Of a DNA stretch of 64,000 nt, positions 6,206 through 56,900 are shown piece after piece; within the stretch, counting starts at the first letter, position 1; each line of letters starts with the position of its first letter. The position numbers were made by a program, and so were the translations under genes. Origin of the DNA: Arenicellales bacterium (GTDB taxonomy: Bacteria > Pseudomonadota > Gammaproteobacteria > Arenicellales > JAJDZL01). Under the pieces are notes generated by a model that saw only the letters and a list, made by a program, of their open reading frames with translations, was not told where the DNA came from and did no database searches. The stretch is taken from NCBI GenBank assembly GCA_965205205.1, contig CBDBFX010000002.1:1821506-1885505 (forward strand), written 5' to 3'.

Positions 6206-7006
6206 TCAAAAATTGGCTGTTTCGAATGGAAGGTCGGAAATCAATATCAGTAAAGTGGTATCCCCAGGATGCCCTTTGGCATGCAGTTGGGTGTGAACGA
6301 AAGCCGCACTTCGCCAATTGCCCCGCAGTTCCCTTGGATCGAGAATGAGCTGTTGGGTGAGATTGTTGCTGATTTTAATCGTCGTAATGAAATGGTGTGG
6401 TGACTGCCAGCTGGACATGGGAGTTGATGTAACCGCGCCGGCGCAGGGGGTTGGAATTCGCAGTGCGCATCGAAATATTTCAAGTGGATTCGGATCAACC
6501 GACAGTCGCTGAACACCGGGTAGCTCATGCAGCAGTCTTTTCGGTGCATAGTGCTGCTGCACCACCCAGCGGGTCAGCTGCACGAAACCGTATTTTGTCT
6601 GCGCGAAGGGTTTTTCACGCCGGGTCTCAGCCGATTCAGCCAGAATCACCATGGGTTGATTGAAGCGTTCCGAGTGTTGTGCCCTGACCTCTAGAATAAT
6701 CCGCCCTGTGGGATTGGCCATCACTACCAGCCTGGTCGTAGATAGCGTGTCGACGGCTTTCAACCACAAGTGATTGCCGATGATTTCGACCTGCAGTTTA
6801 GATTTGACGGTCGGCGGAATGCCCAATCGCAGTGTCGTCGCACTAGGAATTGATATGTGCTGTTCTTCACCCACTGCGAGGTCGATTTGAAGCGGTGTCT
6901 TCGGCCAATAGTAGGTGGTTTCGGAAGCGCAGGCGACGTTCACAGCCAAGAGCTGCCATAGGAAGCATGCAAAAAATCGTGTGTTTCGACCGGAGGATGG
7001 CATCAT
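6206..7006 (-). CDS. ICE protein, TIGR03749 / PFL_4704 family
   Basis: 266 aa with a signal peptide. Start overlaps the upstream stop (ATGA). Assigned by synteny. Confidence 0.5.
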   Translation of the reverse strand: MMPSSGRNTRFFACFLWQLLAVNVACASETTYYWPKTPLQIDLAVGEEQHISIPSATTLRLGIPPTVKSKLQVEIIGNHLWLKAVDTLSTTRLVVMANPTGRIILEVRAQHSERFNQPMVILAESAETRREKPFAQTKYGFVQLTRWVVQQHYAPKRLLHELPGVQRLSVDPNPLEIFRCALRIPTPCAGAVTSTPMSSWQSPHHFITTIKISNNLTQQLILDPRELRGNWRSAAFVHTQLHAKGHPGDTTLLILISDLPFETANF

Positions 7007-25021: not shown

Positions 25022-27028
25022 TCAAACAATTCGATTTGGTACCGCAGACTTTGATTTTTCGTCCGTATTTACAACCATCTGCACGGTTTTCAGTACGTCG
25101 TTGCAACTCATAAAACAGCGCGGCCCATTTGGTGGGAATTGGATTGTGGCTAGCATGTCGCGTGTACCAGACCGAATCCATGAGTCTGCCGAAAAATTGG
25201 TGTTTACCAGGTAAACACTGCAGAAATGCCTGTATTCCGAGGCGGGCTGACTCATTGGTTGGAGTGAAAATGGGGTGTTTACCAGGTAAACACTCAGGAA
25301 AAGTCTGATATTTGTGTTGGCGGATGGTCCGCGGCTCAGGTCGATCGCTCCTACAGACAGGTCTACAGCTGCGGATGCCATTGTCAGTAGTAAGTCTCGA
25401 ATATTTAGGAATAAGTGATGATGATGCCGTATCCCACCGCCACCGACCGACCATTCAGGCCGAGGTTGACAGTGATCGAAAGCAGTCCCAATTTGGACAT
25501 CAGAAGCTAATGGTGGACCGGGTGGAATGATGGTGCATGTTGAAATGTCGCGTGTTTCAGATCGAATCTTTGAATTTTCAGAAAAATGGGTGTTTACCAG
25601 GTAAACACTGCAGAAATGCCTGTATTCCGCGCCGGGCAGACTCATTGATCGGTGTGAAAATGGAGTGTTTACCAGGTAAACACTCAGGACAAGCCCGGTA
25701 TTTGTGTTGGTGGATGGCCCCTGGCTCGGGCTTGTCGGTCCTGTTGATCGGTCTCCAGCTGCGGATGCCAATGTCGGCGGCAAGTCTCGAATATTTAGGA
25801 ATAAGTGGTGATGATGTCGTGTCCCACCGCCACCGATCGACCGTTCAGGAAGAGGCTGACACCGGTCGAAAGCAGTCCCTATTTGGACATCAGAAGCCAA
25901 TGGTGGGCCGGGTGGAATGATGGTGCATGTTGAAATGTCGCGTGTGCCAGACCGAATCCCTGAGTTTTCAGAAAAACGGGTGTTTACCAGGTAAACACTG
26001 CAGAAAGGCCTGTATTCCGCGCCGCGCAGACTCATTGATCGGTGTGAAAATGGAGTGTTTACCAGGTAAACACTCAGGAAAAGCCCGGTATTTGTGTTGA
26101 TGGATGGCCCGCGGCTCGGGCTCGTCGGTCCTGTTGACCGGTCTCCAGCTGCGGATGCCAATATCGGCAGTAAGTCTCGAATATTTAGGAATAAGTGGTG
26201 ATGATGTCGTATCCCACCGCCACCGATCGACCGTTCAGGCAGAGGCTGACACCGGTCGAAAGCAGTCCCTATTTGGACATCAGAAGCCAATGGTGGGCCG
26301 GGTGGAATGATGATGTATGTTGAAATGTCGCGTGTGCCAGATCGAATCTCTGAATTTTCAGAAAAACGGGTGTTTACCAGGTAAACACCCCTGCAATGAC
26401 TGAATTTGGCACACGCGATCCCTCCAACATTCCAATTGAATGGTTGATTTGAACCGTAGTCAATTGTTAGACTCGCCTTAGCAGAATCAGTGGATTTCCC
26501 GTGCAGGATTTGAGCCATCGGCAGTAAACCTTGCCGTCGGGTCTTTGAAATTTGCTCAGGACTTATTTCTGGATGATGAAACAGGAAGATTAGAATCAAT
26601 GGTCTGAGCACACCGGTGCATTGAGGATGGAAGTCAATCTCAATGAAACGAACTGAAGTTGAATTTGGTGTGGAACTCAAGATTTTGCCGTGTTTTTTAT
26701 TAAGTTCTAAGAATGTCCGAGTGCACACATACCTGTCAGTTAAACGTTGATCCCGTTTGCTTTCTAGCAGGTGGACAGGCAGGTTGATACCGATTCGATC
26801 TGGCGAGTGGAAACAAAGATAGCGTTTGGTTGTGAAATGTATGCGTACAACGAAAATGGAACAGTATTTCTGTTCTGTCCCAAAAATGTAGAATCTGACC
26901 GGTGCATGGAGATTCAACAGCACAATGTACTCATTCAGTCTGTACTCAGCAGAGCGGATGACGGCAGAGTCGGCGAATGAGACTTCTGTCTCAAATTCAC
27001 GGTTGGTGGATATAATTACCATTGACAT
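25022..27028 (-). CDS. Doubtful 668-aa ORF: a unique AT-rich N-terminal part (about 27028-26400) read through the tandem array
   Basis: The frame stays open because 390 bp equals 130 codons. Unit-to-unit changes are mostly non-synonymous (11 or more aa changes from about 19 nt changes). Composition is odd (HHHH, many Cys) and no SD precedes the ATG. The unique part contains HSPDRIGINLPVHLLESK, a PD..ExK-like spacing. Confidence 0.2.
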   Translation of the reverse strand: MSMVIISTNREFETEVSFADSAVIRSAEYRLNEYIVLLNLHAPVRFYIFGTEQKYCSIFVVRIHFTTKRYLCFHSPDRIGINLPVHLLESKRDQRLTDRYVCTRTFLELNKKHGKILSSTPNSTSVRFIEIDFHPQCTGVLRPLILIFLFHHPEISPEQISKTRRQGLLPMAQILHGKSTDSAKASLTIDYGSNQPFNWNVGGIACAKFSHCRGVYLVNTRFSENSEIRSGTRDISTYIIIPPGPPLASDVQIGTAFDRCQPLPERSIGGGGIRHHHHLFLNIRDLLPILASAAGDRSTGPTSPSRGPSINTNTGLFLSVYLVNTPFSHRSMSLRGAEYRPFCSVYLVNTRFSENSGIRSGTRDISTCTIIPPGPPLASDVQIGTAFDRCQPLPERSIGGGGTRHHHHLFLNIRDLPPTLASAAGDRSTGPTSPSQGPSTNTNTGLVLSVYLVNTPFSHRSMSLPGAEYRHFCSVYLVNTHFSENSKIRSETRDISTCTIIPPGPPLASDVQIGTAFDHCQPRPEWSVGGGGIRHHHHLFLNIRDLLLTMASAAVDLSVGAIDLSRGPSANTNIRLFLSVYLVNTPFSLQPMSQPASEYRHFCSVYLVNTNFSADSWIRSGTRDMLATIQFPPNGPRCFMSCNDVLKTVQMVVNTDEKSKSAVPNRIV
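25125..26390. repeat. Tandem array, 390-bp unit x about 3.25, with seven identical 19-bp palindromes
   Basis: GTGTTTACCAGGTAAACAC (8-bp arms, CAG centre) starts at 25200, 25275, 25590, 25665, 25980, 26055 and 26370. That is a period of 390 bp with 75 bp within each pair. Units 2 and 3 differ at about 19 of 390 positions. Unit 1 is more diverged (7 of 56 in the inter-palindrome spacer), yet all palindromes are identical. Confidence 0.95.
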
Positions 27029-28551: not shown

Positions 28552-28798
28552 TGACACTTGCAGGTTTTCATCTATATTAAACAGACAAATAATTAATATT
28601 CATAATATCAATGCCATAAGGGAATAACTAATGTCAATTATGGCACCATTTAATGTACCGCAGGTGGCACTATTTCAGTTCATTTGACAATTATTGTAAA
28701 GTGCACGAACTATCGCTACATTGTCATTCGCAGATAATTTTGTCAATTTCCAATGACATTTTAGGCTGTTTCTTTTGGTTTCGAAATTTTGGTTATTG

Positions 28799-29974
28799 AT
28801 GAGGTGCAAAATGATGCTAATCCGCTATATTTCCCTTACCTTGCTAATGATACTGGTATCAATTCGTATCATCCAAGCTCAAGAGACGGAGTCGATATCT
28901 ACCTCGGTATGGTTGGAAAGTATGCAGACGGCTGCAGAGCAGGGCGATGCCGAAGTGCAGTTCGGCCTTGGAATGATGTATCGCTCTGGCGAGGGCGCCA
29001 TACCCTCCATCCAAGATGATGTTGAAGCCGCGCGCTGGTTTCAGAAGGCTGCGGAGCAGGGCCATGTCGAGGCTCAGTTCAACCTTGCATTGATGTATGA
29101 CTTAGGTGAAGGCGTGCCGGAAGACGATGTGGAAGCTGTGCACTGGTATCGGAAGGCGGCGGAGCAGGGTTATGTCGAGGCTCAGTTCAAGCTAGGACTG
29201 ATGTATGGCTTAGGTGAAGGCGTACCGGAAGACGATGTCGAAGCCGTGCGCTGGTTCCGGAAGGCGGCGGAGCAGGGTCATGGCAATGCTCAGTTCAACC
29301 TTGGCGCGATTTATGACTTAGGTGAAGGCATGCCGGAAGACGATGTCGAAGCCGTGCACTGGTATCGGAAGGCGGCGGAGCAGGGTCATGACAAGGCGCA
29401 GTACAACCTTGGCGCGATGTATGACTTTGGTGAAGGTGTGCCGGAAGACGATGTGGAAGCTGCGCACTGGTATCGGAAGGCGGCGGAGCAGGGTCATGAC
29501 AAGGCGCAGTACAACCTTGGCGCGATGTATGACTTTGGTGAAGGCGTGCCGGAAGACGATGTCGAAGCCGTGCGCTGGTACCGGATGGCCGCAGAACAGG
29601 GAGATGCCGATGTACAGTTCAACCTTGGCGCGATGTATGACTCTGATGAAGGTGCACTTCAAGACGATGTGGAAGCCGTGCACTGGTATCGGAAGGCGGC
29701 GGAGCAGGGTCATGACAAGGCGCAGTACAACCTTGGAGTGATGTATGACTTTGGTGAAGGTGTCCTCGAAGACGATGTCGAAGCCGTGCGCTGGTACCGG
29801 ATGGCCGCAGAACAGGGGGTTGCCCGTGCACAATTCAGCCTTGGCATGAAGTATAGCTTCGGTGAAGGTGTGTCTGAAGATGATGTCGAAGCAGAACACT
29901 GGATTCGGAAGGCCGCAGAGCAAGGTCATGCCCATGCGCCGCTCTTCCTTGAAATGATGTTGATGGATGACTAA
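28799..29974 (+). CDS. Secreted Sel1-repeat (SLR/TPR-like) protein, ten 36-aa repeats
   Basis: It has a signal peptide (MLIRYISLTLLMILVSIRIIQAQE) and ten repeats of the type AEQGhxxAQfNLGxMYdxGEGVPEDDVEAVxWYRKA. The start is uncertain (ATG at 28799, 28811 or 28814). The flanks are AT-rich. Confidence 0.85.
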   Translation: MRCKMMLIRYISLTLLMILVSIRIIQAQETESISTSVWLESMQTAAEQGDAEVQFGLGMMYRSGEGAIPSIQDDVEAARWFQKAAEQGHVEAQFNLALMYDLGEGVPEDDVEAVHWYRKAAEQGYVEAQFKLGLMYGLGEGVPEDDVEAVRWFRKAAEQGHGNAQFNLGAIYDLGEGMPEDDVEAVHWYRKAAEQGHDKAQYNLGAMYDFGEGVPEDDVEAAHWYRKAAEQGHDKAQYNLGAMYDFGEGVPEDDVEAVRWYRMAAEQGDADVQFNLGAMYDSDEGALQDDVEAVHWYRKAAEQGHDKAQYNLGVMYDFGEGVLEDDVEAVRWYRMAAEQGVARAQFSLGMKYSFGEGVSEDDVEAEHWIRKAAEQGHAHAPLFLEMMLMDD

Positions 29975-51164: not shown

Positions 51165-52298
<1,134 letters not shown>

Positions 52299-52612
52299 TA
52301 CCGGAATCCGGATGGCTCGTTGGTAACGACACAAAGGTTGACAAAGTTTAGCCACTCACGATTAATGGTTCTGCACCCAGAAGGTTCGAACAGATGTCCA
52401 CGGTCGACTTACCTGTCACATTGTCGCATGCCGAATTGCATGCTCATCATTCAACAGATCACTTTCTTCGTTTGAAGTGTGACGTAGTGACAGGGCGGTG
52501 GTAGCCGTCCGGCTGAGTTTAGGACCTCCTATACCAATCGGGGCCAATGGCGGACCCGCCCCAGGAAGTGTGCGGTCCCCGAAGCGGATCTGCCATCAAT
52601 CAGTGCGTTGAC

Positions 52613-55420
52613 TCAGAATCTGAAAGCCAGCGCCACACCCCCGCTGAGCGAACTGTTGCCACGACCGGCCGTGGTGTGGTAAATGGCGCCGGACAAAGTC
52701 GACCGACCTTCATTCCAGCTCTTCGAGCCACCGAATCCAAGACGGATCGAGGTCGGTCGGGTCTCGGTGCTGACCGTGTCCGATCTCAGGTCGCTGGACA
52801 CCGAGATGCTGCGCTTGGCATTGAAATCATGCATCAGACCCAGCGAACCGAACAGACTGCAGCAGTCGCCTCCGTCCGCACCATACTGGGTGTCGATCCG
52901 GACCTCGTAGCCGCCCTGCAGCCCGGACCCATCTTTCATGGCCACGGTCTCTTCCAGGGTCGCCGTTATTGCATTCTTAAATGCGTTGCCGGCGGTATTT
53001 GCTCGGTGCGTGTATGTGGTCCTGAAATCCTTCATTGACACCGACGTCCAGGCCAGCGAGCCGCGCTGCGTCACCGTCGCGTTGCCGAGTACCAGTTCCA
53101 TGGCGGCGCCGATGCCCAAAGCATAACTGGTGCCCTTGGTTTTGGCATTCACCGTAAACGGTGTCGCCTGTCCCGCGATCGTTTCCGAGGACTGCACCTT
53201 GATGTCATCATACTGGGTCACCCCCAGCCAGCCGTCCAGCACCCAGCCGCCAGCCTGGCGCTTCGCCACGCCGAAGCCGGCACCGATACCCGATGCCTCG
53301 ACCTGACCGCCACCGGTCACCTTGGCCCGACCCTGCCGATGATGGAGACCGGCCCGGTAGGAGAGGCCATTGTCACCGGGCAGGTCGGCGCCCACCGCAA
53401 AGCCGGCTGATGACAGCCGGTAGGAAACCGCCTCGCCCAGCGACTTTTTCAGCCGCCGATCACCACTGCCACCTTCCACGCGCACCCAGCCGGCGTTGCC
53501 GCCGCCTGCCCCTGCACCACCGTCAGCAGAAAACTGCATCGCTTCACCGTCCGGCTCAACCGAGGCATCGGGCGCCGACGGCACATAACGCTCCATCCCA
53601 CCGCTCAGGTCCCACAGCACCGACGGCAGGGACTGATAGACATTGCCTCGCTTGGAAACCTGACGTTGCCCGGTGGGCGCAGTCAGCTCGGTTGCCAGCT
53701 GACTCGTGAAATCCAGCGAGAAGACGCCGGCACTGCCCGGAACATCCGTGATTTGAGGCGTCAGTTCCAACTGGCGTTGCCAGTCGTTGTAAAATCCGCT
53801 CGGCACGTTTTCCAGCGTCAGCAACGGAATCTTGGTGCCATGCGTTAGGGATTTATAAGTTGTCTCGCCAACCAGTTTGTATCGGAATTTGGTCTTGGCC
53901 TTGTTGCTCTCGATCTTCTGAATGCCCCGGAAATTTCCGTTCAGTAGAATCAGCAGATCCGTGGTCTGCGTGTCGTCCTGTTGGGAGATTTTCACCGACC
54001 GGCTATTCGTCCCTTCGGCGTGTGGCACCAGCCGGCCTTTGGCGTCAAGCCTGATCGTGCCGCCGCCCATCATATGCACCGCCGCACCGTTCTTACCGCC
54101 CCGGACCTCACCTTCGACAATGACCTGCTGATGGTACATACCGGCGATCGCCGCCTTCTTATCAATCAAATCCTTATCTTTAATGGCGTCAAAGGTTGTT
54201 GGTAGGGCGATGGTTTTGGGGGTGACATCGTCTAGGTTCCCAGCAGTCGTCAGCGGATTCGGATATTGATGCGTGCTGATGAAAATGCCGTGTTTGCCTT
54301 CGCCGGCCACCACCAGACCACCCGCCGCAACCGTTACCGCCACCTTGCCACTCCGGCCGCCGTCATAGACACCATCCACATCTTTTAGATACTCAGCATA
54401 AGTACGTCCTTCACTTAAGTTTGTATGTTCATCTTCTGTTAATTCCCCAAGTTTGTAATCTGACCACCGATGATCCACCCAGATGCCGTGCCCGTCCGCA
54501 TGCAGCTGGCCGGCATGCGTCACATTGATATCGCGGATAGTCGATTTCCCGGCGCCTTCAAGCATCACGAAAACACCATCCTTCTTCACCGGCTTATCAT
54601 CGGTGCCAATGCGCGCGCCAGCCTTGATATCCAATGTAACCCCTCCTTCGTAAGCCGCTTCCGAATTCTGACTGTGGATTTTAACACCGTGGCCAATGTC
54701 GCCACCGATCTGAGTCTCGCCATTCAACGTCATATCGATGCTGCCTCCATCTTTGGAATTCTCATAAATTTCAATGCCGTTCCGGTTCACATTCAAACCT
54801 TTCACCTGTCCGTTGAAATCGATTATGATATCGCTCTCGTTGTCTTCTGAACTGACCTTGACAGCAGCTCCAGAACCGGTCGTGCCTTTCATTGTGAATA
54901 CACCTTTCGGTATGTTCAGGATGATCGGAACTTTTTGAGGACCTACACCGGCTTGCTTTACGACTTGAGCAAGGATGCCATTGAGTAAGGCGGTATAATC
55001 GCCACTCGAGGTGATTTCAACCTTACTGTCTCCTGCCAGCTTTCCTTTCGCCTCCACCAGCAACCCGTAAGAAAATTCTTTATCAAGGTCGACCCCTTCC
55101 TGAACCGTCAGTTTCAAACCCTTGGTTTGATGGTTGACGGTATATTTAATTTCGGCGTTGTTAGCTCTATTACCTGCAGTAATAGAACCAGGGGCGCAGG
55201 TTACCGTCGGCGGTGTTACGGTTCGGTCCACTGGACCACACTCGTTCGCCGATGCCGTCGGCGGAGTCAGGATTAGAGTGGCCGCGAAGACGGCCGCGAA
55301 GTGGATAAGATTCGGGCGAGAGTGTTCACCCCCCCCCCTTTTCGAAATCAACCGATGCGGAACCGTTCCGTCGAATCCCCTTCCCAGTCCAGCACCAAGT
55401 GAATAATTTTGCCATATCAA
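52613..55420 (-). CDS. Autotransporter (type Va) with passenger domain and C-terminal beta-barrel
   Basis: 935 aa with a signal sequence (LIHFAAVFAATLILTPPTASA) and a Gly/Thr/Val-rich passenger. The C-terminal beta-barrel ends in the OMP signature GGVALAFRF. The ORF-track start is TTG, and start-codon choice is complicated by a G10 tract. Confidence 0.8.
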   Translation of the reverse strand: MIWQNYSLGAGLGRGFDGTVPHRLISKRGGGEHSRPNLIHFAAVFAATLILTPPTASANECGPVDRTVTPPTVTCAPGSITAGNRANNAEIKYTVNHQTKGLKLTVQEGVDLDKEFSYGLLVEAKGKLAGDSKVEITSSGDYTALLNGILAQVVKQAGVGPQKVPIILNIPKGVFTMKGTTGSGAAVKVSSEDNESDIIIDFNGQVKGLNVNRNGIEIYENSKDGGSIDMTLNGETQIGGDIGHGVKIHSQNSEAAYEGGVTLDIKAGARIGTDDKPVKKDGVFVMLEGAGKSTIRDINVTHAGQLHADGHGIWVDHRWSDYKLGELTEDEHTNLSEGRTYAEYLKDVDGVYDGGRSGKVAVTVAAGGLVVAGEGKHGIFISTHQYPNPLTTAGNLDDVTPKTIALPTTFDAIKDKDLIDKKAAIAGMYHQQVIVEGEVRGGKNGAAVHMMGGGTIRLDAKGRLVPHAEGTNSRSVKISQQDDTQTTDLLILLNGNFRGIQKIESNKAKTKFRYKLVGETTYKSLTHGTKIPLLTLENVPSGFYNDWQRQLELTPQITDVPGSAGVFSLDFTSQLATELTAPTGQRQVSKRGNVYQSLPSVLWDLSGGMERYVPSAPDASVEPDGEAMQFSADGGAGAGGGNAGWVRVEGGSGDRRLKKSLGEAVSYRLSSAGFAVGADLPGDNGLSYRAGLHHRQGRAKVTGGGQVEASGIGAGFGVAKRQAGGWVLDGWLGVTQYDDIKVQSSETIAGQATPFTVNAKTKGTSYALGIGAAMELVLGNATVTQRGSLAWTSVSMKDFRTTYTHRANTAGNAFKNAITATLEETVAMKDGSGLQGGYEVRIDTQYGADGGDCCSLFGSLGLMHDFNAKRSISVSSDLRSDTVSTETRPTSIRLGFGGSKSWNEGRSTLSGAIYHTTAGRGNSSLSGGVALAFRF
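55329..55338 (-). repeat. Homopolymeric G10 tract (C10 on the plus strand) in the 5' end of the autotransporter ORF
   Basis: The plus strand reads cac-CCCCCCCCCC-tttt. On the coding strand the tract encodes K-R-G-G-G (codons 27-31 of the TTG-initiated ORF). Confidence 0.95.
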
Positions 55421-56459
55421 TCATTGAATTTCCTCCGTCATCCATTAACGTATTGGCAGCTTACATGAAAAACTCAAAATAAGCTCAGAATCAAACCCCG
55501 CATTTTACTTGATTCAACTTTGTGTGAGGTAAAAATTACGAAAGGTAATTACATTGTCACCCATTTATCCATTCTGAGCAATTCAACTAGAGAACAATAT
55601 AATTGCATGGATTAAAGATGGGAATGGGCGTTTTTCAGACGCACCGGCTGTCGGTGGCGGAACACACTGTGGGTGACGGTCGAAGGCGATATCATTGGGT
55701 CCAGGTTGTCAGGCACCGCGGGGTGGGTGTGAACAGTCGTCGGTCGAGCCGCTACTGAACTTTATGAATGCTGTGGCAGGGGCATGTTCCGTTGCGGGAA
55801 TTGATTCTTATCAATTGTCGCTCAGAAGCCACAGCATGATCCAGAATGAATAGATTTAAGTGCGGTATGTTGTGAGGCCCCGGGATGGTGGCGAGGTGCG
55901 GTTGCTCATCAGGCGCGGAAGTTTCTTTGACCGTAGACTAGTGCGCCAGTTGCTTCGGCAGATGGCGAACCTGTGGGACGATGAAATTAAGAACGTCGTT
56001 CCGATGAAGGTTGGCGCGGCTGGACGGGCGCGAAGACGTATTTGGCCTTTCAGTAGGCAGGTATGTCTGCAGGGTACTGGCGTGTTTTCAGTTTCATCCA
56101 CCATGATTTCGGCGCGGTATTCGTGATTCTGCGCCATGACGGGGGTCGCGCGTGCCGGACCGGTCTGCCGCCAATTGATTGACGCGCCGGCACATCAACA
56201 TTAGATAACGTTACGGTCTACGGTATGCAGTGGATTCACGGCTGATTTCGCCTGTCAAAGGGAGCCAATCGAATTTGACTAGGCGACCGGTCATAATTTT
56301 TCGAACACAAAAGCGTGAAAACTTGGCATTGATTCAGATTCGCACAGATGACAGTGAGACTGCGAATTTAAAAAAATTACTTTAAACTCAAGGTGAGAAA
56401 CGGCGATAAAAGTGTTAAAATTTTACGCTTGTATCCAAATATGCAATGGGTGAAAACCA

Positions 56460-56900
56460 ATGAATTTTTTCATATCAGACGCGTTGGCGCAATCGGGTGG
56501 TGAAGCGGGTGGATTTCTGAGCCTCGTGCCGCTGATCCTAATTTTTGTTCTGTTTTATTTTCTGTTGATTCGTCCGCAGCAGAAACGTGCAAAAAAACAC
56601 AAGCAGCTGGTCGCTTCGTTAAAGGTTGGCGATGAAGTGGTGACCAGTGGTGGACTGGTCGGCAGGATTACCGTCCTGCAGGGAACGGAGGAAAAAGAAT
56701 CAGCCGGACAGGTTGTCAACTATGTTGGGATTGAACCGCAGCCCGGTTCACTGATGTTCGTGCAGCGCGATGCGGTTACGCATCTTCTGCCAGCTGATAC
56801 GATTAAGGAGTTTGAAGCCTGGGCCACCCGAAAGAAATCCAAAGGCAAACGCAAAAAAAAGCCGATCGCAGAAATTGAGGTTGCCACTGGTGAAGACTAA
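56460..56900 (+). CDS. yajC: Preprotein translocase subunit YajC (with a Lys-rich C-terminal extension)
   Basis: The block LVPLILIFVLFYFLLIRPQQKRAKKHKQLVASLKVGDEVVTSGGLVGRI is the YajC core. At 146 aa it is longer than the usual 110 or so. Confidence 0.85.
   Translation: MNFFISDALAQSGGEAGGFLSLVPLILIFVLFYFLLIRPQQKRAKKHKQLVASLKVGDEVVTSGGLVGRITVLQGTEEKESAGQVVNYVGIEPQPGSLMFVQRDAVTHLLPADTIKEFEAWATRKKSKGKRKKKPIAEIEVATGED

Follow-up and report, generated by a model that had tools for sequence, protein, structure and literature searches.

Comparison with described phase-variable surface proteins

Phase variation of surface proteins through homopolymers is textbook knowledge for the small-genome pathogens of animals. 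The element considered here is a run of ten guanines (G10) at the 5′ end of a gene for a surface autotransporter, located in a stretch of 64,000 nucleotides (nt) of an Arenicellales genome (contig CBDBFX010000002.1, positions 1,821,506 to 1,885,505), hereafter called the window. The tract occupies 55338-55329 on the minus strand, appears as C10 on the plus strand, and is in all probability a translational phase-variation (contingency) switch. The anatomy of the start region, the logic of its reading frames, the same layout in three genomes, and a mixture of ON and OFF copies are all observed; from these we infer that the tract slips at a useful rate and that slippage is under selection.

The closest analogue of the window family is the PmpG autotransporter family of Chlamydia, an expanded set of paralogues with polyG tracts, copies broken by frameshifts, and gene conversion (bioRxiv 10.1101/506121; PMC3932018). 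Both families consist of type V autotransporters with many paralogues, and both have coding polyG runs of at least 8 nt, in-frame and out-of-frame copies, signs of gene conversion, and some decay. In contrast, there is no sequence relationship between them, as the window protein has no GGA[ILV] motif, a single FxxN motif, and no match to the Pfam family Chlam_PMP. The tract of the window family also always lies in a dedicated leader 5′ of the signal peptide, and its host is an uncultured marine gammaproteobacterium and not an obligate intracellular pathogen.

The Opa proteins of Neisseria are closest in logic, although they are small 8-stranded barrels and not autotransporters. About 11 opa genes are present, with CTCTT repeats in the region of the leader peptide (PMC3745409). 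As proposed for the window family, the paralogues are dispersed, and each is switched separately by a leader repeat of its own, without any change to the mature protein. The repeat of opa is the pentamer CTCTT, whereas that of the window family is a homopolymer.

Meningococcal nalP contains a genic C9-13 tract and is phase variable, and MspA is listed likewise (PMC5953494). NalP, like the window protein, is an autotransporter whose gene contains a poly-C/G tract (9-13 nt in nalP), and its barrel (1uyn) matches the model of the window protein with a template modelling (TM) score of 0.79. It differs in being a single-copy gene with a protease passenger, without a paralogue family or a separate leader. 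The autotransporter genes of Campylobacter have G tracts upstream of the start (capC) or within the coding sequence (capD; PMC7168839). The coding tract of capD parallels that of the window gene, while the upstream tract of capC parallels those of two distant relatives described below (loci L081 and L082); one difference from the window family is the small copy number.

Start region and homopolymer tract

The start region of the gene reads GGAGGAaattcaATGATTGATATGGCAAAA...TTCGAAAAGGGGGGGGGGTGAACAC on the minus strand, to which all features of this section belong. A Shine-Dalgarno (SD) sequence, GGAGGA (55436-55431), is followed after a 6-nt spacer by an ATG (55424-55422). The leader from this start codon to the tract measures 86 nt, or about 29 codons (55339..55424), and the G10 run occupies codons 29-32 of the ATG frame. 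The translation of this frame, MIDMAKLFTWCWTGKGIRRNGSASVDFEKGGG*, crosses the tract and ends at a TGA (55328-55326) after 32 codons. The long open reading frame (ORF), 935 codons as read with G10 (55420-52613), is offset from it by 1 nt. Upstream of the tract it can begin only at one of two TTG codons. The first (55420-55418) lies 10 nt after the SD, is the first codon past a TGA in this frame, and is possibly a weak alternative start. The second (55351-55349) has no SD and matches the annotated start of one paralogue, P0006 (MFSKKGGG). On the 3′ side of the tract, the first in-frame ATG, GTG, or TTG is the GTG at 55231, which lies past the predicted signal-peptide cleavage site TASA|NE.

Every coordinate that the preliminary description had given for the SD, the ATG, and the 32-codon frame proved correct when the minus strand was re-read, as did the 1-nt offset, the restriction of upstream starts to the two TTG codons, and the absence of a start codon between tract and signal peptide. 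It had further proposed that the loss of one G or the gain of two would join the ATG to the full-length protein, and an in-silico series from G7 to G14 bears this out. With G9 or G12 an ORF of 936 or 937 amino acids (aa) opens from ATG 55424. Lengths of G7, G10, or G13 leave the long ORF open from TTG 55420, and G8 or G11 leave no long ORF from any start 5′ of the tract.

The tract is the sole G/C run of at least 7 nt in the window, and only two runs reach 6 nt, namely one G6 and the G10 itself. A base-composition model predicts 8.7 runs of at least 7 nt and 0.17 runs of at least 10 nt in the same stretch. The genome thus avoids G/C runs, and the G10 is a clear outlier.

In the proposed mechanism, translation would start at the SD-associated ATG 55424, cross a leader of about 29 codons whose sequence seems unimportant, and then enter the poly-G run. 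The autotransporter would be produced and exported only if ribosomes emerge from the tract in the reading frame that encodes the signal peptide, passenger, and barrel. Gs would be added or removed by slipped-strand mispairing during replication, so that the tract would at times have a length that is in frame (G9, G12) and at other times one that is not. A change of three bases would mean no more than one glycine more or less in the pre-sequence removed by cleavage. As the tract belongs to this cleaved pre-sequence, changes between in-frame lengths would leave the mature protein unaltered. The preliminary description had suggested an OFF or low-expression state for the window copy. Read from the conserved ATG, G10 is out of frame and G9 or G12 would be needed, so that this copy is predicted to be OFF, or at most leaky through the overlapping TTG 55420.

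No structured RNA such as a riboswitch, attenuator, or frameshift element was found by an Rfam scan of 52200-56600 at E ≤ 1, and upstream DNA conserved between the window and the two other genomes described below was not found. A weak promoter-like site, TTCCCA-17-TATATT (55596..55624, minus strand), lies about 170 nt 5′ of the ATG; it comes from a consensus scan alone, with 9/12 matches.

Paralogues in the same genome

The window protein has 13 paralogues with 63-76% identity, all on the same contig of 3,805,514 bp, which gives 14 copies in total. Two of them, P0004 and P0011, have "MI.." leaders and start with MIGTTISFSWRGTVPGIRRNGSAPIDFVGGGQRHS... and MIGITKSFSWCAAVPGMRRHGAAPIDFVGGGGRDD..., respectively. 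Their N-termini align residue for residue with the ATG frame of the window gene (z = 14-18) and not with its TTG frame (z of about 0-2), and they pass through GGG or GGGG in frame into the signal peptide. This indicates that the ATG is the start of the family and that these two copies are ON. The Gly run is three residues long in some paralogues of this genome and four in others.

The annotated start of P0006 is the equivalent of TTG 55351. Eight other paralogues are annotated from inside or after the signal peptide (MILTP.., MVFAALL.., MTC.., MKLTVEE.., MAEGVHV..), the way gene callers proceed when the frame is broken upstream. As annotated, these eight would not yield an exportable protein. 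Altogether, the conserved start is not in frame in 11 of the 13 full-length copies of the window genome. Each of the 14 paralogues probably has its own tract, and a population of cells would then display changing combinations of surface proteins.

Some members of the family look degraded beyond being switched off. P0013 is a C-terminal fragment of 590 aa. P0014 is interrupted by an internal frameshift at about codon 500, and the remainder corresponds to the window gene when translated in a different frame.

Related genes in two other genomes

The DNA of seven relatives of the window gene was read on contigs ctg6934l and ctg6937c (3.33 and 3.43 Mb) of the ENA assembly ERZ24894574. All seven comprise an SD, an ATG, a leader of 95-108 nt, a run of G10 to G14, a signal peptide, and the motif A(N/D)ECG. 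The SD-like sequence (GGAG, GAGG, or AGGAG) precedes the leader ATG by 5-9 nt in each, so the ATG of the window gene has the same position after the SD as those of loci L083 to L088. Tract lengths are G10, G10, and G11 in one genome and G11, G10, G14, and G11 in the other, with mixed phases in both.

Four of the seven tracts are in frame and three are out of frame. The two L083 genes, at 6677 and 10001, both have G10 and an in-frame length of 10, L088 has G11 with an in-frame length of 11, and L086 has G14 with an in-frame length of 14; these four are ON as read. L084 and L087 have G11 with in-frame lengths of 10 and 13, and L085 has G10 with in-frame lengths of 9 and 12; these three are OFF, like the window copy (G10, in-frame lengths 9 and 12), which makes four ON and four OFF copies. 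The ORFs downstream of the tract in the OFF copies are open over 850-935 codons. In L084 and L085, the leader is called as a gene of its own, a "leader ORF" of 64 aa.

The leaders show no sequence relationship between the three genomes. Conservation in this region extends to the start, the approximate leader length, and the tract with its position, which is shared by genes only 37-50% identical. A conserved leader peptide was considered and dropped, since a per-frame count of synonymous and non-synonymous substitutions found no coding constraint, a count of low power. Within the close subfamily, all 11 proteins that have an N-terminal extension contain a Gly run in it, and several distant members also have one, such as P0025 with seven glycines.

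The tandem pair of L083 is 98.7% identical over 531 nt of the 5′ cassette, whereas the two proteins are only 66% identical. Judging from this comparison, the 5′ cassette is homogenised between paralogues.

The preliminary description had interpreted the tract as a slipped-strand switch, and the N-termini of the paralogues, the DNA of the seven related genes, and the intact ORFs of the OFF copies all argue for this interpretation. A slippage switch is favoured because the G10 is the sole run of its kind in the window, the tract is kept while the leaders are unrelated, and the OFF copies remain open downstream.

In L086 (3109-3133), L087 (2985-3003), and L088 (3106-3127), an in-frame ATG lies 2-3 codons past the tract (..AIMRS.., ..AVMRT..). 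Translation from this ATG would give a normal short signal peptide, and the G run, located 5-7 nt on its 5′ side, could be a ribosome-binding site. The role of the poly-G run as an SD for an ATG just 3′ of it is thus plausible in these three genes; it was rejected for the window gene, which has no start codon there.

Across 79.9 kb of related loci, only one other G/C run of at least 8 nt is present. This is a G11 (L083 5557-5567, minus strand) that splits a DUF499 ATPase gene into a 145-aa N-terminal part, covering positions 6-137 of the PADLOC profile, and a 799-aa C-terminal part, covering positions 242-1021. The split gene adjoins genes for DUF3780 and a DUF1156 methyltransferase in a defence-type operon. 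It may represent a phase-variable or an inactivated defence system in a genome that also carries poly-G autotransporters.

Distant members of the family from co-occurring high-GC (guanine plus cytosine) bacteria have their long homopolymers, G20 and C22, in the promoter or the 5′ untranslated region instead. At L082 (2920-2939; ctg22294_48x_l, ERZ25068400), in a genome of 72% GC, a G20 lies upstream of the start of the gene for P0015, a PF03797 protein. It follows TTGCGC, abuts TATAGT, and, at about 60 nt from the ATG, resembles a tract in the spacer of a promoter. At L081 (2959-2980; ctg22247_50x_c, ERZ25068400), a C22 is situated 20 nt before the ATG of P0016 and just 5′ of a GGAGG, and the P0016 gene is directly preceded by another PF03797 gene in tandem.

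Identity of the encoded protein

The window gene is assigned, on the basis of homologues and a structural model, to the type Va surface autotransporters, of which it encodes a divergent member. Proteins of this type have a 12-stranded C-terminal barrel as translocator, with an alpha-helical linker before it, and their passenger is usually a right-handed beta-helix. The label of autotransporter in the preliminary description is not supported by direct searches: the window protein has no match among Pfam, NCBIfam, or PDB sequences, also when the threshold was relaxed to E ≤ 10 or a family profile was used. It is supported by relatives that carry PF03797 and by the predicted fold. P0015 and P0016 are the sole non-paralogous matches in a search of 5.8 billion proteins, and both carry PF03797 in addition to the long homopolymers at their 5′ ends. 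The last 300 aa of the window protein can be aligned over their whole length with the PF03797 region of P0015, the terminal F included. The domain is matched by five of the 12 family members scanned, with a best value of 5e-27. A profile search of 1.84 billion representative proteins gave 156 matches at E ≤ 0.001, 11 of them at E ≤ 1e-30, which points to a small family.

The predicted signal peptide has the core EHSRPN-LIHFAAVFAATLILTPP-TASA (55247..55327, minus strand), identified by inspection from a hydrophobic stretch and an AxA motif. The hydrophobic core, LIHFAAVFAATLIL, which a hydropathy scan also picks out, is followed by TASA|NE at residues 58|59, with predicted cleavage before NECG. 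The mature N-terminus A-(N/D)-E-C-G is kept in relatives. An ESPR domain (PF13018) was considered and rejected, as a Pfam search at E ≤ 10 with the reconstructed in-frame N-terminus and with that of P0004 gave no match.

The AlphaFold model built from a family alignment of 38 sequences has a mean predicted local distance difference test (pLDDT) score of 78. The passenger (residues 59-589; 53654..55246, minus strand) is modelled as all-beta with pLDDT mostly 80-97, confidently so over residues 60-580, and is followed by an alpha-helical linker (residues 590-612; 53585..53653, minus strand). Long antiparallel strands at residues 643-934 form the modelled barrel region. The C-terminal beta-barrel comprises residues 643-935 (52616..53494, minus strand), is supported by Foldseek and the PF03797 alignment, and ends in ...ALAFRF. 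The top Foldseek matches are the barrels of EspP, EstA, BrkA, NalP, AIDA-I, and Hbp, with E values of 2e-10 (EspP, 3slo) to 3e-6 and target TM scores of 0.6-0.8 (0.76 for BrkA, 3qq2). A first AlphaFold run from 14 paralogues only left the barrel unfolded, and its Foldseek matches were non-significant; they comprised the passengers of Vag8, Ag43, and Hbp and tailspikes (beta-helix) at E 0.2-2.4. The aromatic C-terminal residue, a signal for outer-membrane insertion in type Va autotransporters, is present in the ending ALAFRF. Twelve of the 13 paralogues keep this ending, three of them with minor substitutions, and so do most relatives. The paralogue without it is P0014, which is frameshifted before it.

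Alternative explanations

Several points weigh against the reading of the tract as an on-off switch that is OFF in the window copy. The tracts of the paralogues are inferred from annotated protein N-termini, not from DNA. The differences in tract length are those between homologous copies and not those of the same locus across cells or strains. Judging by their names, the related contigs come from long-read metagenome assemblies, of whose consensus homopolymer length is the weakest point. In L086 to L088 the tract may modulate expression rather than abolish it, owing to the downstream ATG that the window gene lacks. The window copy itself may not be fully OFF, as its G10 frame is open from TTG 55420 with a plausible extended signal peptide. 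Lastly, for Campylobacter capC the authors found tract length unlinked to intactness, and they prefer lineage-specific decay to switching (PMC7168839).

The first alternative is a three-state switch, in which G9 and G12 would give high expression, G10 and G13 low expression from TTG 55420, and G8 and G11 none. Graded expression from alternative starts is known for lic1 of H. influenzae, and the open frame from TTG 55420 would use the same GGAGGA as the ATG. Its product would have the basic stretch HRLISKR before the hydrophobic core, a workable signal peptide by prediction. The N-terminus of P0002, identical to that of P0001, shares exactly the 28 residues of the TTG frame. However, the TTG overlaps a better-placed ATG that would take most ribosomes, and a frame open over 28 codons arises by accident in about one case in four. 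L084 and L085, relatives of the same phase, have a stop directly before the tract in the TTG-type frame, so that this start is not conserved. The simplest explanation for the identity with P0002 is copying of the 5′ cassette, of which the tandem pair of L083 is another example. A graded switch is judged rather unlikely.

The second alternative accepts the tract as real but takes its true length to be G9 or G12, so that the gene is ON and the ragged starts of the paralogues are miscalls. Homopolymer length is the main residual error of long-read metagenome assemblies, and a single-base error would suffice. The names of the related contigs (ctg..._50x_c) are typical of long-read metagenome assemblers. 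Against this, the neighbouring tgt and secD align with their relatives over the full length without frameshifts, and many independent tracts would have to be miscalled. Mixed reads at a tract would themselves be a prediction of phase variation, and an artefact would alter only the state call, OFF or ON, and not the nature of the element. Such an error is improbable.

Decay of a redundant family, with copies lost by frameshift at a mutational hot spot and no adaptive reversible switching, is slightly less probable still. The many copies without an in-frame conserved start agree with it, as do the second, internal frameshift of P0014, the fragment P0013, and the precedent of capC. A long G run is unstable, however, and if not maintained it would be broken by point mutation, yet it is found at the same site in these diverged genes of three genomes that otherwise avoid G/C runs, and the OFF copies retain their 850-935 open codons.

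Restoration of the frame by RNA polymerase slippage or ribosomal frameshifting, with a constitutive low level of product from G10, is the most improbable of the alternatives: runs of at least nine identical bases can cause transcript slippage in bacteria, for which a tract of ten is long enough in principle, but the efficient known cases are A/T runs, no frameshift-stimulating structure was seen in the Rfam scan of 52200-56600, although none was searched for specifically, and the differing tract lengths and phases of the copies would be left unexplained.

Genomic setting

The autotransporter gene is flanked by tgt (51204-52298) and by yajC-secD (56460 onward). The nearest relatives of the Tgt encoded there, with 76-65% identity, belong to Arenicellales metagenome-assembled genomes. 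In the closest Arenicellales genome (L001), tgt is directly followed by yajC-secD, and compared with it the window has an insertion of 4.1 kb (52299-56459) that carries the autotransporter gene in the opposite orientation. A homologue is absent from all 80 tgt loci examined. L003 and L004 have insertions of other content, 2.2 kb and 4.7 kb long, at the same tgt-yajC site. The region of about 1 kb upstream of the gene (55425-56459, 48% GC) has no Rfam or Pfam match. Scans for tandem repeats and tRNAs near the gene gave nothing relevant.

Elsewhere in the window, 8.5 tandem copies of a 108-bp unit are present at 29012-29937, within an ORF on the plus strand (28775-29974). Their translated consensus, as read, looks like a Sel1/TPR-like, eukaryote-like repeat protein; proteins of this kind are often noted in host-associated bacteria. 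Another repeat, 3.2 copies of a 390-bp unit with 90% identity, is located at 25155-26388 in a minus-strand ORF of 668 aa (25022-27028).

Significance

The mechanism proposed for the G10 tract is classical, and what is new is the gene family and its lineage. On sequence grounds, the new element is an autotransporter subfamily invisible to Pfam with a conserved module of leader, polyG, and signal peptide, multigene in uncultured marine gammaproteobacteria. Multigene families of it occur in several uncultured marine bacteria, with 14 copies in the window genome, and these bacteria are probably associated with invertebrates. A full-text literature search found nothing on autotransporters in Arenicellales and nothing pertinent on phase variation in sponge symbionts, and reports of such switching in uncultured bacteria, whether environmental or symbiotic, are scarce.

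The poly-G family and the G11-split defence gene together suggest that stochastic variation of surface and defence functions may be a general strategy of such symbionts. It is put forward tentatively, as a reading about as likely to be wrong as right, that the poly-G tract defines, as its 5′ module, an autotransporter subfamily not described before and that homopolymer slippage is such a general strategy. If this holds, the lack of adaptive immunity in their hosts would point to phage pressure or host-cell recognition as the driver.

The finding flags a subfamily of autotransporters that Pfam does not detect. It also explains the ragged and split starts set by gene callers, with 64-aa leader ORFs called on their own and signal peptides cut short. 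Heterogeneity in tract length can be looked for in long-read metagenomes that already exist. A switch family of 14 copies, with relatives in at least two other genomes, would offer a testable case of surface heterogeneity at the level of the population.

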